From assembly GCA_001724265.1 (NCBI GenBank), contig MEDY01000019.1, positions 1 to 64,000 on the forward strand: DNA of 64,000 nucleotides, read 5' to 3'. Under the pieces are notes generated by a model. That model saw only the letters and a program-made list of their open reading frames with translations. It was not told the origin of the DNA and searched no databases. The stretch comes from Rhizaria sp. SCN 62-66. Its lineage: Eukaryota. Both the position numbers and the translations under genes were made by a program. Of the stretch, positions 19,801 through 57,049 are shown one piece after another (position 1 is the stretch's first letter; every line of letters starts with the position of its first letter).

Positions 19801-22800
19801 ACAGTCGTGGACCACGTGAAGGCTGCCGAATCAGCGGCCGCAGTCGCACCATCCACGTCAATATTGCGCGAAACAGGATTGCTCCAGCCGCGGCCAATAG
19901 GCATGTACAGCAGCTGACCAGCTCTCCAGGTGCGCGGTAGGAGGAAAGTGCAGTACACGTCGTACCTAAGTCCTGCGGTCACCTTTGCGGGCCGCATCTC
20001 GGTCGGCAGCGTCGTTCCGCGCGGGGTAGTCGCCGAGGCGGTGAAGACGTGGCACATCGGGCGCGGAGCGTCTGCCGTATTGGTGTCCGTGGTAGTCGGC
20101 AGCGCAGCAACCGCAAACGTGGTCGCGGCGATCTCATTGCTCATGCGTACGTGCGTGATCGAGTCAACGAGCGAGACCTTCAACCCGCCGGAAGTGCTCG
20201 CCTTGCACAGCAGACCGCGCAGGGTATGTTGAATCTTGAGTGACTTGGGATTCGAATCGCTTGCGCGCATGCGGAGATACACGGTCGACGTCGACGTCGA
20301 GCTCGTCAGCACCTCGACTGAGGGCGCCGTGGTGACTTTATTGGTTGAAGGGCGACGTGCGACAAGCGCGGCATCGAACGTGCAGATGGAACTGTCGGCG
20401 GAATCAACGCGCACGTCAACGAGCGGAAGCCACAGCGAGGTGGGAGCGATGCTGGCGATATCCACGGTGAGGTCGATAGAACTGTAACCCGCAGACTGTA
20501 CGAAGTTAGTCATCGTGACCATGCTCGAAGTGAGTAAGCCTACCGTGGTGGGTAACGCAGCCCAGCCAAAGACAACGTTCGTAAAAGTAATATCAGCCTC
20601 GAAAGCACTCGTTATGGGGTCATACGAGCCAAACTGCATCGTGTATACGCTGCTTGTCGAGCGCAGAGGGTGGTAAAAGACGCCATTGAAGGAAACTGTC
20701 GCCGTTGTCGCGGTGGCTGCGCACTCATCGGTAGTCGAGGAGCCAGTCACCAGGTAGCCCAAATTCATAGGATCGCGGATAAACGTCTTTCCGGCGCTCT
20801 CACCGGTCGGCAGCACGTCGAGGACGTACTTGGTGCGTGCCTCCTCAGGGATAATAAGACGAATCGCGCCGTTGACCGGCATCGAGTACGGACAAAGCAC
20901 TGAAGCCACGGCGCTCTGGATGTTCACGACCAGATTGTACGTTTGCATCGCAACAGCTGTCGTCGCGGTCGCAGTACCCGTGATAGCCGAAGTAATCACA
21001 GCGGGCGCCACGCGAGGGAGCACAAAGAACGTTTGAGCCAGCGGCGTCGTGCTACGGAGATTATACACAAGCGGCGCACTAGTGGCGGAGACAAGGAGCT
21101 TAATGTCGCCGGAGAACGTCACCAATGATGTGTGCTGCGTCTTTACGCAACTATCGAGCACGAAAAACAGGGTTGACGACGAAGAACGCGCCACGAGCGA
21201 GCTCATGCCAGTCAGCGGGCACGTAAGCACGCTACTGCTGACGGTGCAGCCAGCGAGCGCATCGTAGTTGGCGGCGGTGATATTGCTCAGAGCGACGTCC
21301 TGCTTGAGCAGCAAGACGCTGGATGCTCCAATGCAGCTCGTGAGGGAGGCACCGCGCAGCGTGAACGCGATAGTGAAGTAGGACAGGGTCGACGACTTAG
21401 TGATGAATTCAAACGGCGGCGAAGCGATGATCAGCGATGCGCCAGCAGTGTTCCGAGTCCAGCTTGTCGCAGGTGCCGTGAGGCGCGCGACGGCGTAGCC
21501 CTCCTGGGGCGCCTGTGCGCCCGATGGCGTGACGCGGAGCACGGCTTCCTCGAGCCGGCCCATCGTGCCTTTGGCGGGCACTAGACGAACAAACGCGATT
21601 AGAGGGGTGAGTAGCAGTGTCGTCGTGCTGTACTCGATCTCAACGACAAGTGTGTCAGTCGAAACAAAGTCGTCTGTGAAGCCACTTGAAGGGGTAATGC
21701 TAGTAGTCCACAGCCGCGTGTTAAGACTGTCCAGCTGCTCCAGTGACAAAACAATGCTATCCGGGAAAGATGTGAACTTAAACGTCACAGACTCAACCAC
21801 AAATCCCAGGATTGCACTTACAGAGTCATTCGTAAACTCCAGAGCGAAGACGCCCCCCGCCGCAGTCGAGATGTCGCCAGAAACAACTGTCACGAAAGAC
21901 GCGAATCCAGAGTAACTTGTTCCGTCGGCAGCGAGCTCTTCCTTGCGCTCCCGCAGCAGCCAGTAAGCCTCTACCACAGGCGTGGGCGCAAATAGCACGG
22001 GAGTCTTTGTGTACGCAACAACGGTGCCGAGCTGCACAGTGCGGCTGGTGGAGAGAAGCGCGTCGGACTCAGCGGCGTTGCTGACAACAGTGACGGTGAA
22101 GCTTGGCGAAGCGCAGACGCCAGCTTTGGCAAAGGCTGTCTGCGTGGTGACGCAGTGCACGTCGCCGTACACGAGCCCGGAGATGTTAACGCGCGTCGCT
22201 GTGCTCGGGAGTGCGAACGTGATGGACTGCTCGGAAAACGAGATATATGTCACTGCGGGCGACGCCGCAATATTTGACGCACCAAAGCCGTCAACAAAGA
22301 AAACAGAATCGCTAAATGTGACCACCGCAGCCAAGGGCGAGTACGTGCTCACCGTGATGGCGGGCAAGTCGAACTGGAGGTCGAAGCCGTCGACATACAC
22401 ATCGCCGGCCTCGGTGTCGACCTGGGCCGCAGAAGCGGCGATGTTGCTGATGGCGATGGTCGGCACTGAGGCGCGGTCACGGCGGTCCGCCATCGGCAGC
22501 TCCAGCACTGTGCGCATGTGCGTCGCGCCGGAAGGCTTGTGGCGCACGCCGAAGATCCACTCGGTGAGCCGCGGCAGGGTTGTGGCGACAGACGTGAGCG
22601 GCATGTACAAGTAGCACGGCGACGCAGGAGTGCAGCTGATATCACTACCGCTGGTGATTGTAAAGGTGGGCGCTGTCGTAGAGCATATGCTCGCGCACAT
22701 GAAAGTGACAGTGCTGAGAGAACCTGAATTGTTATAGAACGTGAGTGTGAGTGCGCTGCTCACAAATGCTGAGGACGAAATTGTCAAGTCAGTGGGAATA

Positions 22801-25800
22801 GTGATCATAAGCCTATCCGTGTTCGCAAGATAAAGCCGTGTGAATGTGAAAGCAGCGTAGTGGCCCGCAGTGACAGGCGCAGCCATCGAAGTGCTCGGAG
22901 AGAGCGAGGTGGACGACTGAACCATGTGTTGCACCGAGCCAGCGGCCGGGAGCGCAAGCTGGCTAAACGCAGGGCGCTTGTAAATAATGCCGTCTACAGT
23001 TGCCTGAACCTCCACGCAGCGGCCCGGAATAGCGGCCATATTGCGGGCGCCGGTGGCCGAGAGGTCTAGCACCACGCCGTGAATGCGGAAACGGAGAAAC
23101 TTGTTCGGAGTGAGGCACGGATTGGTAGCGCACCTGAACTGGATCGAGGTCGTGAGTGGAGTTTTAACCGTCCACTGAGCGATTAGCGCATCCTCATCGT
23201 CCTCCAAGGCGGCGATCGAAACAAGCGAAGGGGAAGGATTCGTGGAGAATGTCACTGCGCTTTGGCAATAGTCAGTGAGCTGAATAAGGAAATTGGCGAC
23301 ACTAGTCGAATAATCATAGCGAGGAATGACCAGCACATCCATGGTGCTGTTGAACTGTTTCGAGCTCGTCATCTCATGGCCCAGCAGATCTACGGAGACG
23401 TCGAAGATGTCGTCTTGCACGGTAGCGGCAGCATTATCGCCGTTCATATTCACAGGATCCGTCGTTCCAGTCCAGGCCGCAACCTTCGTGTTCGAAGTCG
23501 TGGTGAACGAAAAACACGACGCCGCGATGTCGCGCGAGTCGCTGGGGCCGAACGAGGCCGTGGCAAGCGCGGGCACGGTGAACTCGAGGTACGGCGTCAC
23601 AGGCACCGTGGCGGTATCACTGTACATCACCGCAGTCGGGTCCGGCGACGGGAACATAAAGCTGGTAACAGCCATAACCCACGTCGTCGAAGTGCCTGTA
23701 GGAATGACATTGTTGCCCGTGATGGTGTTGGTGCCGGCCAGCGAAGACAAGGTGTTAAACCGCAGCGCGCACGTCTTGCTGAGAGTGACTGTAAGCCCGG
23801 TGAAGGCGTAGGGCGCGTGGTAGTACATGCGCCAGCGCAAGTCCGCGCTCGAGGTCACACCGTCCCATGAGCTCTGCATCACAGTGTTAACAGCGACGGC
23901 AAGGATGTCCATCTTGTTCACAGAATGCGTGGCGAGAATACCGGTCGTGCGCGGCGACGGCAAGCTGTCAAGTAGGATAAACCCGTTGGCAAAGCGCGGC
24001 CACACGGAGCCGTACGGCGTGGCAGGGCCGGAGAAGCGGACGCGCATCGGTGTGTTCGCCTGGGAGCCTGTCGGCAGCACGGGCTGCGGGCACACGAGGC
24101 TGATCATTGCCTCGTCAGTCGTCGAATTGGTGCACGTCCAGTCTGTGGAAAGCGGCAGCAGCGTGAGCGACTCAAGAAAGTACCCAGGTACGTTCATCGT
24201 GTCAAACGAGACTAGGGGTCGCACTTCAACATTGCTGAGATACGATGTAGTTAAAGCAAAGATCTGCAGCTCAAACGTATGAATCTCTGTGAATTGATCA
24301 GGGGTAGAGCTCGTCGGCAATGCGGAAAGAAGCGTCTTGGAAATGTGGAGCGGCAGGAACTGGTAGTCAATGTGCGAACTCGCCAAGTAGGTGAATTGAG
24401 AAAGCGGTTCCTTCAGTGTCGAAGTGTCCCCGCCACCATCGACTGTAAAGCACTCCTGAGGGATTGTGGGGTAGAACGACGGAATTCCGTATAAGACACG
24501 GAATACATTCAGCATCGTCAGGATATGCGTCGAACTAGCACTGAGCGCAGCAGAAGCAGTGCATGTGACGCTCATCTGTGATGCTGTCACTACCGGTGCA
24601 GATGTCGTGCAGTCAAGTGAACTCCCGTTCGTCGAATTGCTCGAAATGGTCTCATTCGCCGACCCCACCGACAGAGAAGACAAGAACTCGACCGCCCCAG
24701 CCGGACACAGTGTGGTGTTAGTGCTGTTGTACGTTATCAAAAACGTCGTATTTCCGCTAATGTCCACTTTTGTGTGTGTTGATATGGCCATGTCAGCGCG
24801 CTTAACCGTCACCCAGGGACTGGCGGCCTCCGTGTCGGTGCCGTCCCAGCTGCCGTCAATAGCCTTGGACTTAATGCGCATCAGCAGGTCGTTGCCGCCA
24901 GTAATTAGCACATTTTTGAGCGGATTGTTCGAGAGCAAGTTGTAGTTGGACAATGTCGTCACAAAACATTTCGGGAGAATAGAGGGCGCAAACTTGATCA
25001 TCCGAAACATGGTCGGAATATTGATCCAGAACACCTTGTGGTTCAGTCCGGAGCCGGGGTGCGGGCACTTGATCACGCGACGCCCGTCAGCGGTGAAATC
25101 GACGTCGACGCAGCTGCTGGCCCCTGTCGAGCCCCAGCTCGAAGTCATCGGCCGCGTCGCAGTCGCAAGCAAGCCGTCCGTGAGATAAATATTACAAGGC
25201 GATTCCGTGCTGACCTTAATCGTAAAGTACACGTCTTCGCCGGCGGGGATCTCCTGCAGCAAGTATACCGTCATCTTGACGTTGTAGTAGAACTTAGGGT
25301 CGGAGCTGTAGAGATCGTCCATGGTCATAACGCGTTCGAGTGCAGTCAAGTCATATTCCATCGCGTTGCGCGTCTGTGCAAAGGTGAGCCGTGCAACCTC
25401 CGTGCTCAGGTACTACGTAGAGTCCTCTTGACTTGTGACATTAAGGCAAGCCGATGTCGCGGTCTTGGAGTTAAGAACAACACTGTTGCTGACAGTCACA
25501 TAGCGCTGCGGGATCTGGCCGAACTCAGACAGCGTGGGCATCGTATCAACTTCACAGCTGTTGATCGATATTTGCGAGCCATCGTAACCTGCAGGGACTG
25601 ACGCTAATGTACAAAGACTTGTGTTAGATAGCGCCGGCAATGTGAAAAGTGTGATTGCCGTCTCATTAGGGCAAAGGGATACTATGATCGTGCGTTTTTT
25701 CGTCGAAGACCCAGAACGATAGGCTGACAAGGTAAACTGCACTGTATACTTGATCGAGAACGTCTCCGTGGCCGTGGTCACTGTGTCCACGGAGGCGCTG

Positions 25801-28800
25801 TAAGCAGTTGGCAACACGTAGTACCGCATCGGCGTCAAGAGCTTGCCCGACGAAGGCGAATACACTTCCATCGGCACAACGTTCTCTGAAATAAAGATGA
25901 TTGAGCTGCCCGACTTAACATTAGCATATGCAGTGATGCACGATGCAGAAAGCAGACTCTGCACATTAAGCACCGAGTAATAAAGCTCAATAGCTGCGTC
26001 GTAAATTGGATACGGCCTGGTAGCGGATGTGAATAATGTGCTCGGACATGTGACCGTGGCGGTGTATCCGTCAGTCGAGATCACCGCCGAGCATGAAGTG
26101 GTCGGAGTATCGGTCGCGTTCGCGTTCCAGACGCCAACTCCTCTAAGGCCGCCGCAGCCGGGGACAATGGACCAAAGGAAGTCGACAGAGCTCGAGGCCG
26201 GGACTTTGCGGTAGATCTGGAACCTGATCAGGCCGCGCACAATAGTGCTTCCAGTCTCGTCGGTGTACGCGTACGTCATCAGCAGGGCGTGGTCAAACGT
26301 TCTCGATGTGGTCTCGGGAAGCGCAAGAGCCTCTAGAGTGTACGCTGTTGAGCCTAAAACAGAAACATTAAACATCGTCGTCGGCAGTGTAGAAGATGAA
26401 AAATTAGATACAGGCACGCGGAGCGAGTTGAACACAACGCCCGTAGGTGGAGGAAGGGTGTTAGTGCCCATTGTAAGCTTGATATTAATGACGGGAGATG
26501 ATGTTGAGGCGTTCTTGATTGTGTAAGCGGTGAGGCCACTCACCCAGTGGGCAACGTTGGCGACGGCGAGCGTGATATTAGAGCTGTCTGCGTTTTGCCA
26601 GACGGAAGAATTTGTTGGGAGCGTGATATTAGTGTCAACATCAACAGTTGTAAAGGTAACAAGACCGATTTGCAGCTGCATCTCGGCCGCTGATGTGTCA
26701 AAAGTGCGAAGTTTGTAGTCTACCACGGCAAACTTGAGTGTCGGCTTTACCGTTGAAGTCTGCGCCGTCATTGTGCGAGACGCGGTGGATGCGTTTGAGG
26801 TACCCCGGCTATAAAGGATGTAAAAACAACTCGCAATAGGTGGGTATGTCACACTGTAGGGATTTGCAAGAACATACGAGGTACTATTAAGGTAGGTCGT
26901 GCTTGTTATAGTGCTAGTAGAAGTGAATGCAATTTTTGTTGAGTCTGAAGAGCTAAAAGTCAACGCGGGGTTAGTCGTGTGCGTTGTAGACAATGTGGCC
27001 CATTGACTGCACTCATCATCGACGTATTGAGCAAAGCTCCGAGTGCCGCTACTACCCGCCGTGGCGAAGCCGACTTGAGAGACGTAACTTGTGATCTTAC
27101 TTTTCGTGGGATCACTATAGCTGAGAGATGTTGAGTCAAACGAAACAAGCTTCAAATTGACTTGTGATGTCGTCGTCTGTTCACGGCCATAAGCAAAATC
27201 TGCCGGAAACTGAATATACTCAGGTGGTATCGTAGTACCAGAAACAAATATAGTCTGAATACACATCGCTGACGCAGCGTTAATATAGCCGGACGTAAAA
27301 CTCGAAATAGACATGTTAAAATAAGGAGCTGTGGATGTTGCGGTGCTAGTGAGAGCAAATATACGTGCCGCTTTCTTGCCTACCGCTGATGTGAAACCAC
27401 TGACTGCAGCAGGAGTCATCGAAGAACCAAAGGGATCGCCGGGGGCACAGTGTGGCAAGGGCAAAAAGTGAATTTGTACGCTCGAAAGAGTGTTTGCGCT
27501 ACCCTTAGCGAAGGAAAATTTATATAATGTCGGTGCCGCCGTTGGAAGTGCCTCTTGTGTCAACGCGAACGAAGAATACTTGGTCGGCGTCCAGTCTGAC
27601 GCCATCGGCACAACATACGGAGCGTACGTGGTCAGCGAACTCGACTCCTCGAGCGTCCAGCACGACGCGGGGATTGACGCCGCCTCCGTCATGACATCTG
27701 TGATGCGCAGACGAGCCCAGCGGCCTGTGATTGCGTTTGTACATTTAATCAGAAAACGGACAGGCGTGAATGTGGACGAACTAAACCCGTCAGTGCGACT
27801 CCCGCCATCGTACGTGATCGAGCAAGAAAAAGTAGACACGTCGCTCGTCGTGTCATTTTTCACATATAGAAGATGTGCTGCATAGGGAACGGTCGAGCCA
27901 GTCGCATTAAGCGACTGCAAACATGTCGTTGAATCTGATTTAATCGTGAGAACACGGTTGAAGGAAGCTGAAGGACAGTAAATGTAGGCATCGACCCAGT
28001 ACGTGGAGCCGTAGAACTGCGTGTATGAAGTCGTCATGCGGAGCTCGGTGCTGGTGGGGGCAACATACGGGATTGTGCTCGCCGCGGGGACATTCGTGGA
28101 AGACAAAAGCACAGAGCTGCTTGCGCCAGTGAAGCTAATGGTGAAACACTGCTTAATATAGTTGCTTGATTGCGCATTTGCTTTGCTCAGGGCGATGTTG
28201 TCAAGAACAAGCACGGCGCCGCCGAGCGTCGGCTGCACCGCCGAGTCCACCAGCTCGAAGTTGATTTTAGTGCTTGTTCGAGTGCCACTAAGTTGCAGTC
28301 CAAATGTGGACAAGCTGGTGTCGATTGTCACGTCGGTGAGAACACTGCCGCTGCACGCAGTATTGACCTCGAGGGAGCCGCCAGTCACGGGGTACGGGTG
28401 CGTGAAGGTAAACTTGAGCGACATGGAAAACGTCAACGAACTGGAAATGATCGACTGGCGCGCGGTCGAGTCAAGCACGCGGTCGGTGGTGACCGAGGGC
28501 GCGGGGTTGTCCCAGGCGGGGACAGAGGAGAACGGCGTCGCGGGGGAGTTGACGATATCGCGCTCGTTGGCGAAGTTGGTGTAGGTGCTCACGCAAAGAC
28601 CGGCGGGGAGAGTGAACCCGCTGGCGAGGTCGGAGTAAATTGGGGACACGGCGAACATGTTCAGAACAAGGTTGATAACGAGTGAGCCAGTTAAAATAGT
28701 CGAACTGCTGGAGGACACGCCGAACTTGACTCCGGTGATCAAAGTGCCAGTGGGAGTCCCGGAGGCGACTGTGAGTGAAACGATCGCCGAGTGGTCGCAG

Positions 28801-29030
28801 ACGAGCGAGAATGACGATGTGTGAGAAGCGTCGGCGGTGGGAATCGTAAAAGCAGCGCGATCAAACTGAGCCTTAACTGACACCGTCTTCGCCGAGAGAC
28901 TGCGCGTTGGCGTGCCGGAGAACGAGACTGTGAAGGCTGTGTGATTGGTCGCGAAAACAACGCACGCCAGCGTCGCCAAGATCAGCAGCAGGGCGCTGAT
29001 CTTGGCGCGGAGGCGCAAAAAGAGTTGCAT
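1887..29030 (-). CDS. Giant (~9,047 aa) multi-pass cell-surface receptor/adhesion-like protein. Order: signal peptide, two arrays of Cys-containing beta-rich repeats, two beta-propeller-like regions, 8 sushi/CCP, Ca-binding EGF, IPT/TIG-like, CxxC Cys-rich repeats, ~9-TM C-terminal module. One in-frame TAG at 25413-25415
   Basis: ORFs 25413..29108 and 1887..25361 are in the same frame, separated by one TAG plus 17 sense codons (…GAC TCT ACG TAG TAC CTG AGC…). ATG at 29030 begins a signal peptide (MQLFLRLRAKISALLLILATLACVVFA); the downstream ORF has none. Ends TAA at 1887-1889. No introns are needed. Confidence 0.85.
2570..5575 (-). other. Multi-pass (~9 TM) C-terminal module, split by a ~640-aa hydrophilic insertion
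   Basis: Three hydrophobic helices at ~5575-5195 and six at ~3270-2570. The motif AFLYRGY…YYW…RK…RPF is typical of a widespread protist multi-TM family resembling the fungal Flc/Pkd2 'TRP' domain (by-eye recognition). Confidence 0.65.
5590..8160 (-). other. IPT/TIG-like repeats followed by CxxCxxG Cys-rich (ephrin-receptor/GCC2-GCC3-like) repeats
   Basis: TIG-like text (PTIDSIEGC…GGNVLVIRGHNFG…ATVTIGGISC…VRCHVPPGTG) is followed by CQACFPGEY, CTQCPSGTH, CESCPAGTYS, CILCPRGMFS, CAQCVPGTYA and a juxtamembrane LCTVCEPGY. Confidence 0.75.
8180..8292 (-). other. Calcium-binding EGF-like domain within the giant protein
   Basis: CIDVDEC…C…CINTFGSFVC matches the cbEGF pattern, although the final Cys pair is incomplete. 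Confidence 0.75.
8290..10055 (-). other. Eight tandem sushi/CCP domains within the giant protein
   Basis: Eight C…(Y/F/T)xCxxG(Y/F/T)…xC…W…C units, e.g. TYSCNTGY…CAWNGW…PIC and TYVCPSGY…RRCLSDGTW…VC. Boundaries approximate. Confidence 0.85.
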
Positions 29031-29826: not shown

Positions 29827-31680
29827 TCACTTCGCTGCGCTCTGTGCTGCTCCAGGGTGACTCCCAGCCGTCGCCGTCGCAGTGGCTGCTGCAGCTGTTG
29901 CCGTCGCGGGGGCATGCTGCGGCGCCGCCGCGTGCCTCCCGGCGTGCCCGGCGACGACCTGTGCGTCAATGAACGCGTCAAGCATGAGCTTCGCGGCGAC
30001 ACGCGAGGTGAGCCTGTTCTCGACCAAGTCCTTTTCCACGGACGTAATCACGCCCTCGACCTGGGCGAACTTGCGCATGCGGCCCAAGAGCTCGTCGTTG
30101 AGCTGCGACCACATCCACTGCCGCCGCTGCATCGCGCGCTTGGCGTGCAAGATGCTCAGCTTGCCCGCAACCTTCGCGCTCTCAGCGCTCGTCCACCCGG
30201 TGAAGGCGTCGTGGCCGAATGAGCGCGAGTTGCGCGTGAACTCGTGCGCGGGCTTCATCATCGCGTGCTCGAACTCGAGCACGCGACCCCAGATCCCGTC
30301 CAGATAGGCCTCCGTGCCCTCGGTGGCCGAGCAAAGCACCGCGATGGGGCTCCACCCGTACGACAGACTGGCCGCGTGGTAGAACGACAGCCCGCGCTCG
30401 TAGTCGGCGCGCGTGCGCTGCGCGGTGCCCAGCAGCGCGCCGTCGGCCTTGGTGACAACGATCATGTCCGCGACCTCCATGATGCCCTTCTTGATGCCCT
30501 GGAGCTCGTCGCCGCCGCCGGGCCCCATGAGCACGATCACCATGTCCACGGTCTGAGCGACGGTGACCTCGCTCTGCCCCACGCCGACCGTCTCGACCAG
30601 CACGACGTCGTAGCCGGCCGCCTCGCACAGCTGCACGGCCTCGGCCGTGTTCTGCGCCACGCCGCCCAGCGTGCCGCGCGACGGCGACGGGCGCACGTAC
30701 GCCGTCGTCTCCATCGATAGTTGCTGCATGCGCGTTTTGTCACCCAGTATGCTGCCACCGGTGATCTGCGACGACGGGTCGATGCTCAGCACCGAGACCT
30801 TGATGCCGTACTTCTGCGTCAGGTACATGCCAAACGCCTCGATGAAGGTCGACTTGCCGACGCCGGGCGTGCCCGAGATGCCGATGCGCAGCTTCGACCG
30901 CGGACGCCCGCGCTGCTGCTTCAGGATCGTCTCCGCAAGCTCGCTGGCGGGCACGCCCGCGTAGATGTCCACGGCGTCACCCGTGACGCCGGAGGACACG
31001 GCGCTGGAGAGCTGCGCGCGCACGCCCAGAGAGGATGAGATCGACGAGGACACCGCACGGCTACGGATCTGCGAGAGTCACAGCAGCAAAGATGACGAGA
31101 TAACATGTTAGAAAAGCTGAAATATGAAATCACATCAATGCAATTTCAATATATAAATACTATTTTGCACTTCAAAAACAGTATAACTTAGCTTGGTCAC
31201 AGTATGAAAACATCTAGATCGTCAAATCTGGAAATCTCCTGTTTGTGAAAAAGAGCGTGTGTGGCGTACCTGCGAGGTCTCGGCCATGTGGGCGAGAATT
31301 GAGACGAGAAGCGAGTTGGCAAGCTCCCGATGCGCCGGATTCGTCGACTCAACCAGCGTAATGCCGCGGGAGAGACTGCGGCGGCACCCAGAGAGGATGC
31401 CGTCGCGAATCTTAGCGATATCAGCAGGCAACACGACAGTCACAGGAGTCGAGTAGGCAGAAGCAGGCGCAGCCGCGGCAGCCGCGCTCGTGGAAAAGCA
31501 AGACGCTGCAGAAAGACTGCGCAGAAATGTAGTGGATGCAGAGGTCGACGAGCGAGGTCCAAAAACGGTGGAGGAAGGGGCAGTCGATTGTGCGGAGGTT
31601 GGGAAGGGCGAAGGCATGCCACTCTTAGGCAGCCGCGCCAAAGCGCGGGATACCGAAGCGGAGACACGCCGTGACAGCAT
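29827..31680 (-). CDS. MMAA: Methylmalonic aciduria type A / MeaB GTPase, mitochondrial (550 aa). Exons 31680-31270 and 31068-29827
   Basis: RRSLSRGITLVES; P-loop IGISGTPGVGKSTFIE; LSIDPSS…GGSILGDKTRM; YVRPSPSRGTLGGV; VETVGVGQSE; GGGDELQGIKKGIMEVAD; TKAD. Arg/Ser-rich N-terminal presequence. Phase-0 intron 31069-31269 (GTACGC…CAG). Stop TGA. Confidence 0.95.
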
Positions 31681-33771: not shown

Positions 33772-36457
33772 ATGGCCTCCAACACGCCCACCATCCGGGC
33801 GCCGCAGCACTCCGCGCCACTGCGGCCCCCGCCCAGCGCGGCCCTGCCGCAGCCGCAGGCCCCGCTGCCGCCCGCCCCGACAAACCGGCCGCCGCCGAAG
33901 CCGCTGTCGAACGACGCGTCGCCGCACTTTGCCAGTAGTGACCCCCACGCCGCAGCCCCGGCTCTGCCCGCTCTCTCTCTGCAAGCGCACCAGCAGTATC
34001 AGCAACAACAGCAACAGCAGCAGCTGCAGCAGCGCGTGACCGTCTCGCCCACCCCCGCCGCCGCCGCCGCCGCGCCCCCGTCGTCCTCGTCTTTTGCGGT
34101 CTATGCCCCGCATCAGCGCCAGCAGCCACAGCACAGCCCCACCGCATCCTCCTCGTCGTCGTCGACGTCATCCGCGGTGACCGTGGAGGAGCTGCGCGCC
34201 CGGTGCGACGACCTGGCCCGCAAGTTGGCCGAGAGCGAGCGCGAAAACCTCGCGCTGAAGCAGGAGGTGGAGACGCTGCGCGTTGAGCGCCGCATTGCCG
34301 ACGCCCTGTCGTCCAACAACGCGGGCAATACCATCCGCACGCCCTCGCGCAACGCGCCCACACTCAGAGGCACGCAGCGCCGCGCCAACATCGTCACCAG
34401 CCCGTCCGCCGCCGCCGCCGCTGCCGCTGCCGCCGCCGCCGCCGCCGCTGCCGCGGGCAACAGCGTGTACGCTGCGACCACCATCCGCGCCCCCGCGTCC
34501 GCTGCGCCCGGACTGCCTCCGGCGAGCGCGACCACGTTTGCGTTCGGCGGCAACACGATCCGCAAGCCCGCGCCCACGATCCCAGCCGGCGCCGGCAGCG
34601 CGGGCGCCGCGGCGACGGGGCCGGCGCACGCTGCCAAGAGCGCCTACTGCGGCGGCGGCGACGGCCCTGACCAGGACGACTGTCCGCCGCCGCCGCCGCC
34701 CGACGACGGCGTCCGCCACCACGGCGCGCCCAACAGCAACAACAGCAACGACGGCGCGACGATTCGCGGCGGGCTGGTGCCGCCGCCGCCCTCCGGGCCT
34801 GCGCCGCCAGTGCCGCCCGCGCCCATCGCCACACTGCCCCGCGGCAACAGCGCAAGCAGCGCCGGCGGCCCTGGCTACGGCACCGGCTCCACGGCGCACG
34901 CGCCGCAGTCGCTGCCGTTCGTATCGGCCGCGTCGCCCACGGCCGCGTCGGGCGCCACGGGGGCGGGGACGCCCCTGGGCACCCCGGCGTCGCCTGTCGC
35001 GCTGCCCGCGAGCTACGACTGGGACGACGCCGGAAGTGGCAACGGCTACGGCAGCGGCGGCAACATCTCCTCGGCGGCGCGCGCACGGCTGATCCAGACG
35101 ACCTTTGACCACTGGGCCGCGCAGGCGTGGATGCGCATCAACCGCAACTACGCCGCCGTGTCGCCCGACGTCTCGGACTTTTACCTGCTCGAAATCGCCG
35201 AAATCATCGACGTCGCGCGCGACGAAGAAGAGGCGCGCGCGCGGCTCGACGTCGCGCTCAGGGGCTTCACCACGAGCGCGTGGCGCCTCCTCCGCAAGAT
35301 CGGCAGCGGCGGCTTTGGCGCCGTCTACCTGGTACGCCATTTAAAGAATTTAGTATCGCTTTGTTGACTGCATTTACATTCATAATTGGTTTCACTAGTT
35401 GGATAGTGTCACCTATTATTGTACATGTATATATGTTATATTTGCTTTAAATCTAACTCACCTTGCAAAATATCAATCATTCTTCTTTGTTTTTCTCAAA
35501 ACTACAGGGTCTTTCTCGTGAGAACCCTAACCTGAACGTTGCGATCAAGGTTGTCTCGCTGGAGGACGCCGAGGACGACGTGGCGGTGATCCACCGCGAG
35601 ATCCAGGCGATGTCGATCAACGGCGTGGGCGGTGACCGCGGTCCGCAGCAGCTCATCAAGTACTACGGGTCCGAGATGCACGGCGCTAAGTTGTGGATCG
35701 TGATGGAGTATATCGACGGCGGGTCCTTCCTCGACGTGCTTAAATCGCTGCCCAACGGCCGGCTGCAGGAGCAGCACGCGGCGATCGTGGCTCGCGAGGT
35801 GCTGCTCGGTCTGCAGCACCTGAACCGCGAGGGACAGATCCACCGCGACATTAAGGCCGCCAACGTGCTCATCAAGACCGACGGCACGGTCAAGCTGGCC
35901 GACTTCGGCGCCTCGCGTACGCTGACCAACACCATGACCAAGTGCAACACCTTCGTCGGCTCGCCGTACTGGATGGCGCCCGAGGTGATGCTACAGAAGG
36001 ACTACGATCACCAGGTCGACGTATGGTCGCTCGGCATCACCGTCTACGAGCTGGTCGTGGGTAAGCCCCCGCTGGCTAACGTCAACCCCATGAGCGCGCT
36101 CACAGTACGTTCTCCTCCACTTATTGATGTTATATAGCGCCATATATCGCTGGAAATATTTGTTCTTGTTAAATTATTGAATTTGTATTCTCATATTCTC
36201 ATATTTCTTCTTTTGTCAACATCTTTTTTTTCCTCCTCTGCGCACAGTGCATTATCCGCGATCCGGCGCCGACGCTGTCGGGCCTGTCGGCGACTCACAG
36301 CCCGTACTCGCGCGACATCAACGACTTCATGTCGCGCTGTCTTGTCAAAGACCCCGCGGCGCGTGCCACCATCGCTGAGCTGCTTGACTCCAAGTTCATC
36401 CGGTCTGCGCGCAAATGCAGCGACCTCGCCGTGCTCGCCAAGAACCTCACCGTCTAA
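33772..36457 (+). CDS. STE20/GCK-type (MST3/STK24/25-like catalytic domain) Ser/Thr kinase with a long N-terminal Pro/Ala-rich extension (788 aa). Exons 33772-35331, 35508-36104, 36248-36457
   Basis: IGSGGFGAVY, VAIK, LWIVMEYIDGGS, IHRDIKAANVL, VKLADFG, NTFVGSPYWMAPEV, DVWSLGIT. Exon 3 (CIIRDPAPTL…DFMSRCLVKDPAARATIAELL…KFI) completes subdomain XI. Both introns are GTACG…CAG, phase 0. Stop TAA. Confidence 0.9.
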
Positions 36458-48043: not shown

Positions 48044-51000
48044 ATGGAGGCTTCTGCCGCGCCTACAAGGCGCGGGGGCAGCCACTAGTCTGCGTCGGTC
48101 CTCTACTCCCACCCTGGCTCTAGCATAGTCGCTCTCTTACGCGAGCTTGAGCTATCTCTTGGCCTTAACCGCCCACAACACGCTGTATCCCACCAGCGCA
48201 CCGCGCCCACACCTGCGTCCACGCTGATCGGCCCTCTCCCAGCGCCGGTGCAAGTCTCGCGCCCTCTCCTGTCAGTCGCCACATCCGCTGCTTCCGCTGC
48301 TGCTGCTACCTCAACTGGCGCTGCCCCGTCCTCCGCGAGCATCAACGCACCCGTCCGCAGCTACGCGCGCCGCCCGCGCCGCACTGCAGCGGCCCTCAGC
48401 GCTGGTTCCGGCTCAAACACTGCAAGCCTGTCGCAGTCGCAGTCTCACCAGTCTCACCGGTCTCACCAGTCTCATCACTCTCATCACTCTCATCACTCTC
48501 ATCAGTCGCTCCTGTCACAGTCGCAGTCTCTGTCTATGATGGACACGTCTCGCGTGCGCTTCCTTCTTGCCCCGCGCCGCCTACCGACGCACGTGTTTGA
48601 GCTCTTGCTGAACTCGCTGCCCCGCTGGCACGCGCGCGCGCCGCCGGACTCCCCGTCCGTGTTGCGGTCACGGCTCGCCGCGCTGTGCTTCGCGCTGCGC
48701 CGCGTGGGTCACGGCGCGCGCGCGGACGCCGTGGAACACGTGGTGCACATGCTCCTCGGCCAGCAGCGGCAGCAGCAGCTGGCGCAGCAGCGTGCTCCTT
48801 TTGGCGCAGCAGAGGGGAAAACAGGGCTGTATGCGATCGTCCCAGTCGCAGGTGCTTCTGCAGCCTCTGCTTCAGCTTTAGCCTCAGGTGCAAGTGTACT
48901 TCCAGCATTACCGGTGTACATTGCGCCTTTGCAGTTGTACAACACCGATATCAATGCCAACTACGCGCACTCTGCTTCTGCTGTTACTGCAACTCGAAGT
49001 ATTAACGGAAGCAGCACCAGTCGTGTGCAGGCTCTCGGCGTCCGCGTCTCGCACCCTTACACAGCCAATCCCCTTACATCGTTGCAGTACATTAATAATA
49101 ACATTAACAACAACTCTGACAACAGCAGTCATCACAGTCGCTCAGCCTCAGCCTCAGCCTCAGCCTCAGCCTCAGCCTCAGCCTCGGCCTCTTCGAATGC
49201 CCCGCCCGCAGCGTTCGTGTGCTCTCTCACCAAGGTCTCGTCCGTACTTGCTCTGCTGCTCGAGCTCGCCGGCTCCGGCTCCGACACTGCGTCGCCCGCG
49301 GCCCTTGCCACGCCCGCACTCGGTAGCAACGACGTCAACGGCGCAAACGTCATCTCTCATGCTAGCGTTGCGAGTACTGCGCTGCTGGGGCCATTAGACT
49401 CGCGCTTAGCCGCGCTGGGCGGCGGCGTCGACAGCTGCGGCGTCGTGACTGTGCCCCGGTCAACGTACCGCGTCAACGCCGGTGTTGGCGATGTCAATGG
49501 CGCGGGCGCTGTGGTTAGCGCTGGCGTCATGAGTGCGAGTGCGGGGTTGAGCGAGCGACTGGCGACGTTTCCGCAGCATCTCGTCATTTCGCGTGCGCTG
49601 CTCACCGCTGCAGCCTCGAGCTACGCGTATAGCAGTCGCTGCAACACGGACAGTCGCAGCGACGAAAGCCGCTACGCACACATTGAAGCGTCTTTTGCTG
49701 CAAACAAAAATGCAAACTCGTTCTCTGCTGCTCACAGCTCCATTATCGCATCTGTTGACGCATACGCTGGCTTTGATGACAACATGAGTCCTCGTAGCTC
49801 CGATGACTGTGCGGCGGTGCCACCATTGCACCCCGCCTTTGGAGTGCTTACACTCGACGGCCTACTTGACGACTACGATTCAAGCACTGCTAGTGGTAGA
49901 AACAACTACGCCGCGACATCGCGGCTTAACTTACACGATCACACGCGGCCTAACTTAGCGCCCCCAATCGCGCCCCTGACGGCCCTGCCCCTGCTGCCCG
50001 CCGCGCTGGACGACAGCGACATCCGTGCAATCATGGCGCAACAAGACGCCACTGCTGCTACTGGAGCAGCTGCTGCTGCTGCTGCTGCTCGAGGTTACTC
50101 CGCTGATAGCGCTCGTAGCCCCCACAGTACTGGCGGCGGAGGCGGGCTGAAGCAATTTGACTGGGGATCCTTGGACACACCCATTGATGTGGACGTTGAC
50201 GTTGGTATTGACTTTGCTGGCGCTAAAATCAACACACAGGCGCAGTCGCATTTCCAGCCGCACTCGCAATCCCAGCTCCACCCAGAGCCTCAATACCAGT
50301 CACGGCGTGCTGGCGCGCCCATCTGCACTCTGTCGTTCACCGAGTGCGTCCGGCAGTCCGCCACACAGTGCGCCACGCAGTCCGCTAGACCGTGCGTTAC
50401 GCAGTGCGCTGCACAGTGCGTTGCACAGTGCGCTCAGCACCCGTGGCGCGGCGCGGTCGAGGGCCGCCGCGATCGCTGCGCCGTCGCGGCCGCAGTGGCG
50501 GCGCTGATGCCCGCGTGGGAGCGCGCGTACGGTGCCGGCGCAGTTATCACTGGTGACGTTGGCGATAGCGATGAGGAGACAGCGCTGTTGCGCGCTGATG
50601 ATACCGCGCCCCGTGCTATCACTCAAGAAAGCAGCTGTAACGGCAACGGTCGCAGCAACGACGTTCTTGCGCTCACATTTGATGACCCACAGGCTCGCGC
50701 GCGTCGAGTCGGAGTGACTGTGGGCAATGAAGTGATCGTGGGCAGCGCAGCGCCCGTGGGCGTGCGCGGTGGCTGCCCGTGGGGCTGGGCCCTCGCCGCG
50801 GCGCTCGCTGGCGCGCCGACGCCCGGGTTTGTCACCACTGCGCCGTGCTCGATCCACTCACAATCGCAGTTGCCATCGCCGTTGCAGCAGCAGCCACAGT
50901 GCGCGTGCTCTTTGTTCCGCATCGCGCCCGCATTCACTACCACAACCTCTCTCTGGGGCCTCTCACACACTGACTCTGGCGTCAGCTCCGGCGCTGCTGT

Positions 51001-54000
51001 GCCGCCGCAAGTCACCACCGTGCTCGCTGCGGCCACGGTCCTTGCGGCCGTTGCCAAGTGGGCAGACGCCGTCGCGACTGCTGACGTCACGTTCTTACTC
51101 TCCCAGCCGCAATCGCGATCACAGTCGCCAACAAATGCGTTGGCGGGCGGCGGCTTCACTTTCGACCGCGCGGCCCCCACCGGCCCGGTCTCCCGCGCCT
51201 TCGCCACCGAGCTGCTGTCTCTCATCTCGGACCTGCGTCTGCGCGCGCGGTTCGTCGCCGCCGCGCTCTCGCCCGCGGCGTCGGTTGTCGTCGCCGCACG
51301 CGCCTTTGCCCCGCTCGTGGCGCAGGTGCAGGGCATAGCGCGGCTATGCTCGAGGACGCCGCACTCTCTGGCTCACGCGCTGTTGTTTGCAGACACGACG
51401 GCTGCTGCCGACCCCGTGTTCGTCATTACCGTTCCGTCTTACAGTGTGGATAGCAGTGCAATGGGCGGCGCGTTGACCGTGGTGCGGACGTGCGCCGGCC
51501 CGGTCGCGTTCCCCTCGGGCCCCGCGCTGTTGTCGCTGCTCTACACCGCGACGGCGACGAGCACGGCTCCTGGGGGCGGCGCCGGCGGCGGCGTGACCAT
51601 TAGCGCGGGGATACAGGCCGCAGCCGCTGCGACCGAGGACGAGAATAACAACGAGGAGAGTGCTTTTGGCGCTGTGGTTGCTGGTGTTACTGCCGATACT
51701 ACAATTGGCGGGCTAAGTGACTCGCCTCTGAGGCCGACGCGGGCGCAGGCGTTGTCGAGCGTGGCTGTGAGTCAGCTTCTCTTTGCTACAAAGGGCAGTC
51801 GTGATGACACTGTTGGCAATGCGAACGACGATGGTGTTGCGAATGAGAACAATGCTTCCATGTTGTTGCCTTTTTCATCACAGCAAAGCTCTAGTTCTCT
51901 GAGTAACAGCACTGACACTGGCGCGAGTGTTGGCACCGATAATGCGCTTTCGTCTGTTTCGCCGCTGCGGCGTCTCTTTGCGGCCGCCGCCGCTCCCTAT
52001 TTTGAGTCTCTTACAGCCCGCGTTAGTACACCGGACTTCAGCTTTTATCATATCAGCGCCAACAACAAGAGTAACGGCACGAGTAGTAAAGCCAAACGCA
52101 AGAGCAAGAACACGAAGCTTTCGCAGCCGCAGTCAGAGCTGCAGTTGCACTCTGAGTCGCTGGGCTCTCTGCCGTGCTTTCTCTCTCGTTCCGACGCGAC
52201 GCTGATCGCCACGGCGGGCGCCACGCTCGCCATGCTGCGGGCCGTGTCGCCCGCTCACGCCGCGCTCTGCGCTGCGCCGGCATTAGCTCACAAGATTAAC
52301 GACAACAACGAAATTCAGAGCAATGCTCTGACTTATCTGCGCTCAGGCGGCGCCTTATCTTCCCCGCATCCAGGCGGATTAACTTCCGCATGGGCGGCCC
52401 TTGCAGCGCTCTCGGAGGCCTCCGCCGCCCGCCGCGCGCGCGCCCTCGCTGTCATCTCGCACTGGCGGCTTCGCGAAGCCACGCGACGCCTGCACGCGCA
52501 CCACGCCGCGTCCGCGCTTGCCGCGTCCGCGCGCGCCTCGGCCGGCGTCGCGCGGCGCGAGACCGCGCGCGCTGCCGCGGTGGAGCTCGGCCGCGAGCGC
52601 GCGGCGCGCGCGGCGGCGGCGGCGGCGGCGCGGGCTGCTGAGGCGGCCGAGACCGAGGCGCGGGTGGGCGAGCAGCGGCGCGCGGCGGCGGCGGCGGCGG
52701 CGGCGCTGCTGCTGGAGCACGCGCGCGTGATGGGGCAGGAGCAGCGGCGGCAGGAGCGGCTGCTGTGGCGGCTGCGGCGCGCGCAGGCCGCCAAGGAGCG
52801 GGAGCTGCTCTGGCGCGGCGTGGCGCAGCTCGAGGCGCGAGAGCTGGCTGAGTACAGTGCTAATAACGTGAACACCAATGCCAGCCCTAAGAACAACAAC
52901 TCTATCAGTTTCAGTCGTAACGTTGCAGTCTCTGGCGCTGTCTTGACTCCCACTGTCGCTACTGCTTCTGCTGATTCTGTTGCTGTTGACATTGACGCCA
53001 AGACTGATGATGATGAGGCCAAGGCTGATGTTGCTGAGCCTGAGGCTGTTGTTGATGCGCCATCTATCGACACGAGCAGCAGCCACTCTGTTTCTCCGAC
53101 TAGCAGCAGTAGCAGCAGCGTAGCCGTGTTGCTCGCGAGTAGTCAAAGTGACGCGAGCGAACACAAGTCTGACTCTGAAAACGACAAAAACGCACCTGAG
53201 ACCAAGGACAACGATGATACAAGTGTGTCTGCTGACGACGTTGACAAGACTGAAACGAGTCAGTCTGCTGTCGCAGCATTGCCATCAACATCAGAATTCA
53301 CAGTTATTCCGACTGGCGACGCGGTTACAGTCACGGATGCGTCAATCGTCACGCCTGCGTTTGTGGCGCCTGGCGAAGAAATCGATTATCAACACTACTT
53401 GGCGCTAAAGGCCGCAGAGGCGTCAACAGGAACAACAGCGTCTGATAACGCCGCGCCAAGCTCTGGTCTTGCCCCGGGGTCGCGGTGGGCTGCTGGCGTT
53501 TCTCACGGTCGCTAGGATGCAGCCAACGATGCCGAGGTTGACGCGGATGTTGACACTGACACTGCCGTGACTTTGGCCACCGGCACTAGTTCGAACTCCA
53601 ATGTTGACGGCGTTGCTGTCGTCTCCACCCCGAGCGATGAGGACGAGTTCCGTGCGTACTTAGCCCTCAAAGCTCGCGAACACGAACTTACGAACGCTGT
53701 TCGAGACGTCAATGATTGCGCTTATCGTGTTGTTGCTAATAGCACGTACACCGTCGTCTCTGCGCCCACAGCGGCGCGCGCGCTGTGCGCCGCCGCCCCC
53801 GCGCGCGCCGCCCTCGTCTCCGCGCTGCTGCCGCCGCTGCTGTCCCGCGCGACCCTGGTCCACGCCGCGGCGGCCGACGCGCTGCGCACGCGGCTGCGCG
53901 TGCAGGACCACCTGGCGCTTCTGCAGCGCACGTTCCTGCTGCTCGACCCCTGCTTCGCCGACTCGCTGCTGCCACCGCTGGTGCATACGCTGCTCACTGC

Positions 54001-57000
54001 CGCCGACGCCGCCGCTGCCACTGCCACATCGTCGTCGCCATCGGCGGCGGCAACCGCAGTGGGTGACGGCAACGCTGCGGACAACGCCAAGCCTCGGGCG
54101 AAAGCCAAGGCAAGCGTGGTTGCAACTGTGCACCGCCCCTCCGCCGCACTCGGGTCGCCCACGCGCATCAGCTACAACAACAGCGAAGCGAGCTCGAGCA
54201 CTAACACTGGCGTCAAGAGCAAAGACACTGTCGCCCCTATGAGCGCCAATGCGAGTGCGAGTGCGCAGGCGTGTGCTTTGTGGAGCCCGCAGGCTCTGAC
54301 TGGGCTGCTCACGACGGCTCTGCGAGACGCCGCCGCCGCGACAGTGCCGCCTCTGCCCGCCGTGCCCACGCTCACGGTCACCCCGACGAACGCTCCCAAT
54401 CGCAGCGGCTCTGGTGTTTCGATTTCTGGCACAGACAGTGTTACCGATGTTGCGAGTGACGCTGCTGTGGTGACCGAGGCCGTCGTTGCCGCCGCCACGG
54501 CAGCACACGCCGCGCTGCCCGAGGTCGAACCTATCCTTGCCTTCGGGGACCGGTTCTCTCTCACCACAGTCGCTAGTAGTAACAATAGCGTGAAAAACGC
54601 CGTCAGCGGCGCTCATTTTGCGCCCGCGCTGGACTGGCTGCGCTTATCTTACGCGCGTCCCTGGCCGCTGCCGCTGGTTATCCCCGACGCCGCTATCGAG
54701 CACACGTACGCGCCCGCCTTCGCTTTCCTCTGCCGGCTCCGCGTCGTCGCCGCCGCGGCCGCGCGCGCGCGCACCGCCGCTGCCACGGCCACGCTCGCAG
54801 TGGAGACGCGCATCGCGCACGCGCGCCGCGCTCTGCTCGCGCCCGCAGTGGCGGCTAGCGCCGCGGCCGCGAGCGGGGGCCGCCGCGCGACGGCGCAGCC
54901 CGCGAGCTCTAAGGGGGCCGCGCGGGGTGTAAGTGCGCTCAAGGGGCCGCGGTGGGGCGAGGAAGAGCTGGCGCTACCGCCGACGCTGGCCGCGCTGGCC
55001 GGCAAGGGCAAGGGCCGCAGCAAGAGTAAGCACAGCGACGATGACGACGATGCTGATGAAAGCGAGAGTGACAAGGACGTGTTTGGCGTTGTCGACGACG
55101 GCAAAGACATCTTCGGTGCTCTTGAAGCCTCTAGTAAGCGCAATCGCTCTTGTTCATCTCGCCGTCACAACAACGATGACGACGACAACGAAGAAGACAT
55201 CTATGATGAGAATGACGACGAGCACGAACAAGATCACGATGATGAGAGCATTATTAGCGCGATTAGCGACGATGAGGATGAGAGTGGTCGCACGATCCAC
55301 CTCCGTCTTACGTCGCACGCGCACTCGGACGCCTTCGTGCCTGAAGCCTACTTGTTCTGGCTTGCCCCGCGGCTGACCAAGTGGCTGCACGCCGTGCGCT
55401 CAGAGGCCACGCACATCGCCGCGACCTTCTCCCACTTTGTCTCCGTCGCCATCGCCGCGGCCGCGCCCGCGCTCGCGACGGCCGTGGCGCGCTCGCAATC
55501 ACTGCCGGCCATGCGCCGCGCGCACGCCCGCTTCCTGCGCTCCGTGCGCGGCGCGACCTTTGCCGCGGGCCCCGCGCGCGCGCTACTGCCGGCTGTGCTG
55601 GCCACGCTCGCGCACGCGCAGGCCTTCTGCGCCATCGCCACCGCGCTCTCGGCGGCTGTGGCGGCGGCGGTGGCGGCGCCCGTGACTGTGCGCGCGCTCC
55701 CGCCGCGGCGCAACGCGGCGGCCGTGCTACGGGGCGCGCCGGAGCTGATGCAGCTGCCCGCCGACACGCTGCCGCGCGGGCGCGAGGCCGCAGCGCTCGC
55801 CGCGCTGGTCCGCGCGGAGGAGTCCGTCCTCTACTTCCCTTCCGATGACAGCCATATTAACGACAGCAGCAGAGTGCGCAATGGTGACGGCTTGAGTGGC
55901 GGGCGTCGGGGTGACCGTGAACAGCAGTCACGGGCCGCGCGTGCGCTGCACCGTGCCTTTGGCGCCAACCTGGGCTCCGTCCTCGCGCGCGCGTCTCTGA
56001 TCCCCAACGCGGGCTCTGCGCGCGGCCGCCCGACGGCTGATCGTGAGCAGCAGGGGTACGCAGGTGACCGTGAGCAGGCTGAGAGCGACGAAACTGCCGC
56101 GCTGTCGGGTCTGCGCGCCGCCGTCTTCGGCCGCCGCTCTGCCTCTGCCTCCACGACAACATCAGAGTCATCCTCAAGCTTTAGCAATATTACTCGTGGT
56201 AAAGTCAGTGGCAGCGGACTTGCATTTGCGACTGCGCCCGTTGCCCGCGCCGTGCGTGTCGCACTGCAGCTCAGCTTCGGCCTTGACCAACGCGCGATTG
56301 ACCTGAGCAGCGGCAGCGGTGCCCCTATCCCCACCGCTGCTGGTGCTCACGGTCACAGTCGCGATCACGATCACGGTGAATACCTGCGTGCGATGCGTGT
56401 GTGCGTGTTCAGCGAGGGCAAGCTCGCGCGCCTGAAGCGGCTTGTGAGCGACGCCGTGCGCAGCGCGGCCGAGATGCGGGCCGGCGCAGTCCGCGTCGAG
56501 CTCATGGCGCAGGAGATCGCGGCGGGCGGCGCTGTCAACACCAGCGGCACTAGCGCTAACGGCAACGGCAACAGCGGCAACGGCGGCAATAGCGGCGCTG
56601 GAGTTAATGATGATGGCTATAGCGACTCTGAGTGGTGCGACGAGTGTGGTCAGCGCAAAAACACCCACAAAGACTTTGCTGACTCAGACTCAGACTCCGA
56701 GCCAGAGCCAGAGTCTTGCGACTGCGATTGTGGTATTGACGATAACGCGAACGACCCATTCAGCTCGATCTTCGACTCCGACTCCCCTGCTGGTGCCGGC
56801 TCCGGCGCTGCGGCGGCTGTCGTGGGCAACGGCGGCGTGTCCCGAGACCGCGAGCGCGCGCGCGCCGGCGAGGTCATGGCGCTTATGTCTGCGCTTGCCA
56901 CCGCGCTCGACGGCGACGGCTTCTACTCGCGCGCGGCCGAGACGCGCGCCGCGGCCGCCGCGGGCGCTGCGGCGGCCAGGGCGGCGGCTGCGCGGCAGCA

Positions 57001-57049
57001 GGAGCTGCTGGCGCAGTGGCAGCGCGGCGGGAGCGCGGGCGCAATGTGA
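48044..57049 (+). CDS. TUBGCP6: Gamma-tubulin complex component 6 (GCP6)-like, ~3,001 aa, with in-frame TAG codons at 48086-48088 and 53513-53515
   Basis: GRIP1 end LPCFLS…IATAGATLAMLR; GCP6-type coiled coil RRQERLLWRLRR; GRIP2 motifs PLLSRATLVHAAA…HLALLQRTFLLLDPCFADSL, LRLSYARPWPLPLVI…YAPAFAFLCRLR, AMRRAHARFL. ORFs 48248..53515 and 53567..57049 are in frame across one TAG, and ATG 48044 is in frame across another. Stop TGA. Confidence 0.85.
48442..48507 (+). repeat. 9-bp (TCTCAYCRS)n repeat encoding SHQ/SHR/SHH in the GCP6 N-terminus
   Basis: tctcaccag tctcaccgg tctcaccag tctcatcac tctcatcac tctcatcac tctcatcag. Confidence 0.85.
49142..49190 (+). repeat. (TCAGCC)n coding microsatellite, Ser-Ala repeat in GCP6
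   Basis: About 8 tandem TCAGCC units. Confidence 0.9.

Follow-up and report, generated by a model that had tools for sequence, protein, structure and literature searches.

Reassignment of UAG alone in nuclear genomes is already known, and in the portions of the literature available to us few eukaryotic lineages are named for it (exLh, Iotanema and some ciliates). The available sections of one account (PMC5304391) describe exLh, a rhizarian of the Sainouroidea, as reading UAG as leucine and stopping at UAA and UGA, with 384 in-frame UAGs in 71 genes, 56 gene ends in UAA and 15 in UGA, and leucine at 82 of 86 hyperconserved sites; the same sections give UAG the meaning glutamine in the fornicate Iotanema spirale, where UAA is still a stop. 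UAG-only reassignments among phyllopharyngean ciliates are described in the accessible part of a second source (PMC11687900). Here we analyze a stretch of 64,000 nucleotides (nt) from Rhizaria sp. SCN 62-66 (contig MEDY01000019.1, positions 1 to 64,000; hereafter the window), in which a TAG at 53513-53515 interrupts the long reading frame of a gene that we call GCP6-like. GCP6 (TUBGCP6) is a subunit of the gamma-tubulin ring complex, which acts in microtubule nucleation, and the same role is predicted from sequence for the protein encoded in the window.

In human GCP6, according to the part of a preprint that we could consult (bioRxiv 10.1101/2020.01.21.914036), residues 675-1501 form an insertion between grip1 and grip2; a helix and a possible coiled coil come first in it, unstructured sequence follows, and its final 100 residues matter for assembly. 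For the GCP6-like gene of the window, we consider it probable that UAG is decoded rather than terminating translation, reassignment being more likely than efficient readthrough. The original prediction, made from the sequence alone, had argued for decoding from the position of the TAG between the two GRIP domains of the protein. This argument is supported by the location of GRIP2 downstream, by the lack of an in-frame ATG ahead of it, by the open frame of a related protein, by a second in-frame TAG elsewhere in the window and by the absence of TAG from all 11 putative gene ends.

Frame and domains on either side of the TAG at 53513

Read directly from the sequence, the TAG stands in the forward-strand context CGC TAG GAT and is the sole stop between two open stretches of the same frame, 48089-53512 (1808 codons) and 53516-57046 (1177 codons). 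These two long frames meet at a single codon in GC-rich surroundings (GC 0.59), and at all other gene boundaries in the window an AT-rich spacer is present; such spacers also lie on either side of the GCP6-like gene (47521-48070 and 57071-57390). The combined share of Ala, Asp, Thr, Val, Ser and Gly is 0.68 in the 100 residues preceding the TAG and 0.66 in the 100 residues following it, and codon-usage log-odds, trained on the window's other genes, favor the same frame on both sides. Among 40-codon windows between 52700 and 54440, the exception is the one starting at 53420 (-1.2), one of several that span the TAG codon, and all others favor this frame. The earlier statements that frame and Ala/Asp/Thr/Val linker composition are unchanged across the TAG, and that no in-frame ATG precedes GRIP2 (the first having been expected at ~54239), were borne out, the ATG being found at 54239. 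Furthermore, neither a frameshift nor an in-frame TAA or TGA was found across the ~12,000 codons of the two long genes of the window, the GCP6-like gene and a giant gene for a secreted protein. A scan of 164 stops flanked by 50 open codons on each side was not discriminating; antisense frames of GC-rich genes score well too.

The gene presumably starts at ATG 48044, which sits exactly at the switch from AT-rich spacer to GC-rich sequence, with ATG 48536 as the alternative. Positions 48089-48535 hold the only stop-free frame of the six, with a codon log-odds of +10.7 and 149 codons ahead of the first internal ATG at 48536; these data suggest an N-terminal extension of the GCP6-like protein that is read through a further TAG at 48086. 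As a separate observation, the GC-rich coding sequence at 48440-48500 and 49070-49150 (forward strand) contains codon-level microsatellites encoding SHQSHRSHQSHHSHHSHHSHQS, NNNINNNSDNSS and (AS)n runs, and mapped contigs are reported as cut at repeats of this kind (for example, at 49132-49198).

The GCP6-like protein contains exactly two copies of a nine-residue motif, one on each side of the TAG (Table 1). Within its YLALKA core, five of the six codons differ between the two copies, all synonymously, which points to selection acting on the peptide, in this frame, before as well as after the TAG. When the downstream open reading frame (ORF) was searched against representative proteins, only three matches were returned, namely the organism's own protein (P0003), a relative (P0004) and a weak third match (P0005). 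P0004 (1063 amino acids) shares 44% identity with the downstream part. Its two motif copies, YLAYLALRA and YREYLALKA, are both inside one uninterrupted predicted protein, which indicates that the frame is open across the TAG-equivalent point in that species. Its open frame extends 47 residues past this point and includes YLAYLALRA, the counterpart of the copy that lies upstream of the TAG in the window; the predicted protein itself begins in the linker. The TAG at 53513, the only in-frame TAG site that can be aligned, falls in a variable spacer of this alignment, and the distance between the motif copies is 78 residues in the window versus 45 in P0004 (33 longer).

Starting immediately behind the TAG, P0003, a public predicted protein of 337 residues, matches the window exactly except in its last six residues. 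Its initial M corresponds to a GTG codon in the window, and the protein appears to stem from bacterial-style gene calling on a short contig from this organism. A metagenome scan for DNA encoding P0004 returned a 3-kb fragment that is identical to the window and ends short of the TAG (L001). At positions 3359-3499 of a contig from a viral collection (L002), a stretch resembles 40 GRIP2-region residues (40% identity; E 6e-4, computed among the candidates); it was set aside as probably a chance match. Homologue searches with residues 1-2986 of the read-through protein and with residues 850-1659 and 860-1260 of the upstream ORF gave no scored match among candidates capped at 2960-8000, lists probably filled by low-complexity words, and so carry no information on whether relatives exist.

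Matches to the Pfam family GCP_C_terminal (PF04130, GRIP2) were found downstream of the TAG only, at 44-47.6 bits (cut-off 25.8; E 2.5e-11 to 2e-12), the best stretch corresponding to residues 130-418 of the downstream ORF. A profile combining the downstream part with the relative was compared with the Protein Data Bank (PDB), counting matches with E up to 10, and all five distinct sequences returned were GCP6/TUBGCP6 (best E 1.3e-6; one carries the name 'Gamma tubulin ring protein'), an assignment made from these matches and without a tree. The profile aligned to human GCP6 residues 1441-1530, which comprise the end of the central insertion and the beginning of GRIP2, and to residues 1590-1629; its match begins at ~53770, slightly ahead of the Pfam stretch. 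The original prediction had placed all GRIP2 motifs after the TAG, from ~53830, and both searches agree with it. Because GRIP2 lies wholly downstream and no ATG occurs ahead of it, a stop at the TAG would entail loss of GRIP2, and the functional argument for decoding stands.

GRIP1 likely lies upstream of the TAG. For 51950-52300 the top family is GCP_N_terminal (PF17681, GRIP1), and in an ESM Atlas feature search of 50876-52288 the named clusters were all PF17681 (best score 0.90), a result that the tool itself rates as a lead. A phmmer search of the upstream ORF and its parts against the PDB gave no GCP match, and a single-sequence AlphaFold model of the GRIP1 region had a predicted local distance difference test score (pLDDT) of 37, too low for use. 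The claim that GRIP1-end motifs (~52170) precede the TAG was thus weakly confirmed. The check proposed with that claim, a search with both GCP Pfam models, succeeded for the C-terminal model (47.6 bits against 25.8) and remained below cut-off for the N-terminal one (14.2 bits against 29.4, E 0.032).

As laid out from the translation, a long N-terminal extension leads to a GRIP1 region ending at about residue 1386, followed by an Ala/Arg/Glu-rich helical stretch, a low-complexity linker and GRIP2, with more than 900 residues preceding the GRIP1 region. Numbered along the read-through protein, the TAG is residue 1809 and GRIP2 begins at ~1900-1939. The long insertion between GRIP domains that had been cited as a GCP6 trait is matched by ~550 residues separating the GRIP1 end (~1386) from the Pfam start of GRIP2 (1939), a distance that depends on the weak GRIP1 placement. 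With its predicted GRIP2, a GCP6-specific stretch before GRIP2 and this architecture, and with GRIP1 below threshold, the protein is best called GCP6-like.

In-frame TAGs, gene ends and neighboring genes

A second in-frame TAG lies at 25413-25415 in the giant gene, where local GC is 0.52, the composition is that of an ordinary exon and no AT-rich spacer is seen. The encoded protein has a signal peptide, degenerate Cys-containing repeats and an intron-free frame, and is probably a surface or adhesion protein; a Pfam search of its first 1205 residues returned no family, and its repeats are too degenerate to align at the TAG. Counting the candidate at 48086 as a third, in-frame TAG amounts to 2-3 per ~16,500 codons. 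Three other TAGs (36135, 60657 and 61071) appeared to be in frame and were rejected because they are located in AT-rich introns. The bases that follow the three retained TAGs (GAT, TAC and TCT) share no motif that could serve as a readthrough context.

The 11 putative gene ends of the window comprise seven TAA, four TGA and no TAG. A Fisher test of in-frame versus terminal occurrence (3/0 versus 0/11) gave p = 0.0027, or p = 0.013 for the two secure TAGs only. In-frame stops that are exclusively TAG, gene ends free of TAG and frames that are otherwise intact form the classical signature of UAG as a sense codon.

A search of sequencing runs found the window in bioreactor, wastewater and activated-sludge metagenomes of several studies, including a polyadenylated (polyA) RNA metatranscriptome, and contigs of four runs were mapped on 48000-57500 at modest depth (~5-7), contigs being able to hide rare variants. 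In run X4, from another study and year, a 645-nt contig (53102-53746) crosses the TAG at 53513 with no differences, and two single-nucleotide polymorphisms (SNPs) separate X4 from the window elsewhere in the GCP6-like gene. Runs X2 and X3 yielded identical contig sets, which were counted once and may be close to, or be, the source data; the TAG at 53513 lies in their contig 53503-54363 and the one at 48086 in their contig 48000-49127, which shows no differences. No alternative letter at the TAG at 53513 was reported among the mapped contigs. Each apparent joint in the mapping was flanked by 20-25 letters of GC-rich repeat sequence, and we judged them all spurious. The polyA RNA contigs of run X5 lie on both sides of the TAG at 53513 (48244-48557, 50201-50723, 53801-54034 and further).

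Table 1. Features of the GCP6-like gene, followed by those of other genes in the window (feature, position, strand, remarks)
Proposed single GCP6-like gene	48044..57049	+	ATG 48044 to TGA 57047-57049, 3001 codons, frame open except TAGs 48086 and 53513
Candidate third in-frame TAG	48086..48088	+	14 codons after ATG 48044
Weak GCP N-terminal (GRIP1) domain-end match	51965..52247	+	PF17681, profile 160-249 of 297, 13-14 bits, E 0.032-0.065
Motif copy 1, YQHYLALKA	53387..53413	+	42 residues ahead of TAG 53513
In-frame TAG in the GRIP1-GRIP2 linker	53513..53515	+	crossed by X4 record 21 with 0 differences
Motif copy 2, FRAYLALKA	53648..53674	+	45 residues beyond TAG 53513
Best GCP_C_terminal (GRIP2) stretch	53903..54769	+	PF04130, 47.6 bits, E 2e-12, profile 2-136 of 309, two stretches
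First in-frame ATG 3' of TAG 53513	54239..54241	+	already within GRIP2
Terminal TGA of the GCP6-like gene	57047..57049	+	AT-rich sequence follows
Giant secreted Ser/Thr-rich protein gene	1887..29030	-	9047 codons, one frame (29030-1890), one in-frame TAG
Second in-frame TAG of the window, in the giant gene	25413..25415	-	ACG TAG TAC; frames of 1240 and 7841 codons abut
MeaB gene (methylmalonyl-CoA mutase chaperone GTPase)	29827..31680	-	domain split 31270-31680 / 29827-31068
Protein kinase gene	33772..36457	+	~500-residue low-complexity N-terminal part; catalytic domain over three exons

GC content of the window is ~58%, interrupted by AT-rich islands. About a dozen protein genes lie on its two strands, with AT-rich spacers (GC 0.33-0.42) between them; those recognized by Pfam are MeaB, a Cu/Zn superoxide dismutase, a protein kinase, an FKBP with EF-hands, a PDZ protein, a thioredoxin-like protein and a leucine-rich repeat (LRR) protein. 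Several of these genes have GT..AG introns, AT-rich and set between GC-rich exons, so that the sequence is nuclear and comes from an uncultured eukaryote. The MeaB gene contains one such GT..AG intron (31069-31269; 201 nt, GC ~0.35) and its product begins with a long, Ser/Ala-rich segment, perhaps a mitochondrial presequence, and the kinase gene contains AT-rich intron segments at ~35321-35540 and 36101-36260, the second of which holds the TAG at 36135, which is not a gene end. At the far end of the window, an open frame with a signal-peptide-like start (63518-64000, forward strand) runs past the last base; by eye it resembles the beginning of an FKBP domain and is possibly a second FKBP gene, and a Pfam search of the fragment gave no match.

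Probable UAG decoding and its alternatives

Under decoding, UAG would be read as an amino acid via a reassigned or suppressor transfer RNA (tRNA), or by very efficient readthrough, UAA and UGA would remain terminators, and the GCP6-like gene would be one frame of ~3000 codons (48044-57049). We infer both the insertion of an amino acid by ribosomes at UAG and the validity of this rule throughout the genome.

Several observations weigh against this interpretation. The weakest point is the scarcity of the codon, in that TAG is ~20 times rarer in frame than off frame (3 in ~16,500 codons versus 85 in 24,524), as rare nonsense alleles would look. All in-frame TAGs lie in poorly conserved regions, none being aligned with a conserved residue; the gene-end sample is small, with 2 of the 11 ends uncertain (that of the ORF at 58296 and that of the kinase, taken from the last exon seen); and GRIP1 scores below its Pfam cut-off. 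Within the 64-kb window, no tRNA genes or Rfam matches were found and no eRF1 gene was seen. Sample support is uneven: the mapping covered 48000-57500, where the TAG at 48086 was seen in the X2/X3 contigs only and the one at 53513 also in a contig from an independent study. DNA encoding P0004 was sought in metagenome, genome and viral contig collections and was not found. Finally, X5 RNA depth is 0 in the bin 53389-53705 and no RNA contig crosses the TAG, which leaves room for its removal or editing in RNA.

The scarcity of in-frame TAG is also what would be expected if the organism used the standard code and recent premature TAGs had arisen in both long genes, as nonsense alleles or in young pseudogenes, perhaps tolerated via other copies or alleles. 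Every site is in a non-conserved linker, long genes are the largest targets, and TAG may be the likeliest nonsense product of GC-rich codons (CAG, GAG, AAG, TCG and TAC). However, this account would have two of about a dozen genes within 64 kb broken, both by TAG, with no frameshift, TAA or TGA in ~12,000 codons and with none of 11 genes ending in TAG. It would also have to accommodate a TAG at 53513 that X4, from a different study and with SNPs elsewhere, carries unchanged, and a downstream part that retains both its coding signature and 44% identity to P0004. We regard broken alleles as an improbable explanation.

A second account, also under the standard code, has the TAG removed or changed in messenger RNA (mRNA), through editing (U-to-C, for instance) or an in-frame intron that is short or atypical. 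Spliceosomal introns do occur in this genome, the TAG could act as a YAG acceptor, none of the RNA contigs reaches across the site, and an in-frame intron of ~99 nt would abolish the 33-residue excess of the spacer over that of P0004. The introns of the window nonetheless provide a poor precedent. Three are confirmed by domain continuity (one in MeaB and two in the kinase) and three further AT-rich segments were taken as introns (two within the LRR gene and one ahead of the FKBP exon); all six are 130-220 nt long with GC of 0.34-0.42, whereas GC is 0.56 or higher in all 62 in-frame GT..AG pairs that span the TAG at 53513, none of which begins with a site of the GTAAG, GTACG or GTGAG type. In 60-nt windows around the TAG, GC never falls below 0.50, and the codon log-odds are positive right up to it. 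Removal would moreover be needed independently at 25413 and 48086, and at 25413 the one short GT..AG that can be read (19 nt) would break the frame. RNA-level removal of the TAG at 53513 is thus unlikely, and we attach little weight to splicing or editing as an explanation.

Still less plausible is a true stop in a split gene, giving an N-terminal protein (GRIP1 and coiled coil) and a separate GRIP2 protein by reinitiation or an internal start. Callers that use the standard or bacterial code do give separate proteins, P0003 beginning just after the TAG and P0004 in the linker. Yet the site has neither a spacer nor an AT-rich promoter-like region, the first ATG (54239) falls inside GRIP2, the GTG beneath the 'M' of P0003 suggests a gene finder's non-ATG start call, the frame of P0004 crosses the equivalent point, and the motif pair straddles the TAG. 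That an assembly or sequencing error made the TAG is hardly credible: although the sequence is a metagenome assembly and depth in the mapped contigs is modest (~5-7), the independent X4 assembly is identical over 645 nt across the site, which makes error very unlikely, the X2/X3 contigs include the TAG too, and three errors all giving an in-frame TAG, and none a TAA, TGA or frameshift, would be improbable.

Decoding of UAG is therefore the account that we prefer, and the rarity of in-frame TAG suggests that UAG is either a recent, young or inefficiently decoded sense codon or subject to efficient readthrough. We tentatively raise a more specific possibility, namely an early stage of stop-codon capture in an undescribed eukaryotic lineage, in which UAG would have gone from gene ends and be re-emerging as a rare sense codon. 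Its figures would be ~1-2 UAGs per 10,000 codons, mostly in disordered linkers of very long genes, in a lineage that has been assembled in several activated-sludge studies. If true, this would be a snapshot of an intermediate step that models of code evolution postulate and that is rarely observed in nuclear genomes, and a new UAG-only case in which UAG is used so sparingly, in an uncultured GC-rich wastewater eukaryote, would be independent evidence on how stop codons are captured. A literature search on UAG reassignment in Rhizaria, metagenomes and activated-sludge protists returned no report of such an organism, which is weak evidence that it is unpublished. In practice, standard gene callers would cut the organism's longest genes in two, and public sets would hold the truncated pieces (P0003, perhaps P0004); in annotating genome bins of the organism, TAG would better be treated as a sense codon or, failing that, as a non-stop.

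Comparison with known systems

The protein resembles human GCP6 in its predicted GRIP2, in the match to human residues 1441-1530 just before GRIP2 and in its long N-terminal extension. As far as the available description of the human protein goes, it also shares a long, non-conserved insertion between GRIP1 and GRIP2 that opens with a helical or coiled-coil stretch. Unlike human or vertebrate GCP6 (1819 residues), the window protein is ~3000 residues long, rich in low-complexity sequence and interrupted by TAG, with GRIP1 below the Pfam threshold. Where the human insertion carries nine 27-residue repeats, that of the window protein has the two-copy YLAL[KR]A motif instead. The animal-like layout of N-terminal extension, GRIP1, long insertion and GRIP2 would then be conserved in a distant protist.

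With respect to the code, the window resembles phyllopharyngean ciliates, as they appear in the accessible text, in that the reassignment of UAG would not depend on the other stops. The macronuclear DNA of ciliates is AT-rich, has tiny introns and is often carried on gene-sized chromosomes. The window differs from it in having 58% GC, introns of ~200 nt and about a dozen genes on one 64-kb piece. The parallel with Iotanema, within what its available description covers, is that the meanings of UAG and UAA would be uncoupled here as well, with UAG as sense; there the evidence is transcriptome-wide and includes a candidate tRNA, whereas here it comes from one 64-kb window without a tRNA gene.

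The comparison with exLh is drawn from the same partial account. UAG is common in exLh, unlike in the window, which has 2-3 in ~16,500 codons and none at a conserved site. The two have in common that each is a non-ciliate eukaryote first noticed in sequence data from mixed organisms, that UAG alone is affected, or would be in the window, and that genes end in UAA or UGA and never in UAG, as do the 11 putative ends of the window (seven TAA and four TGA).

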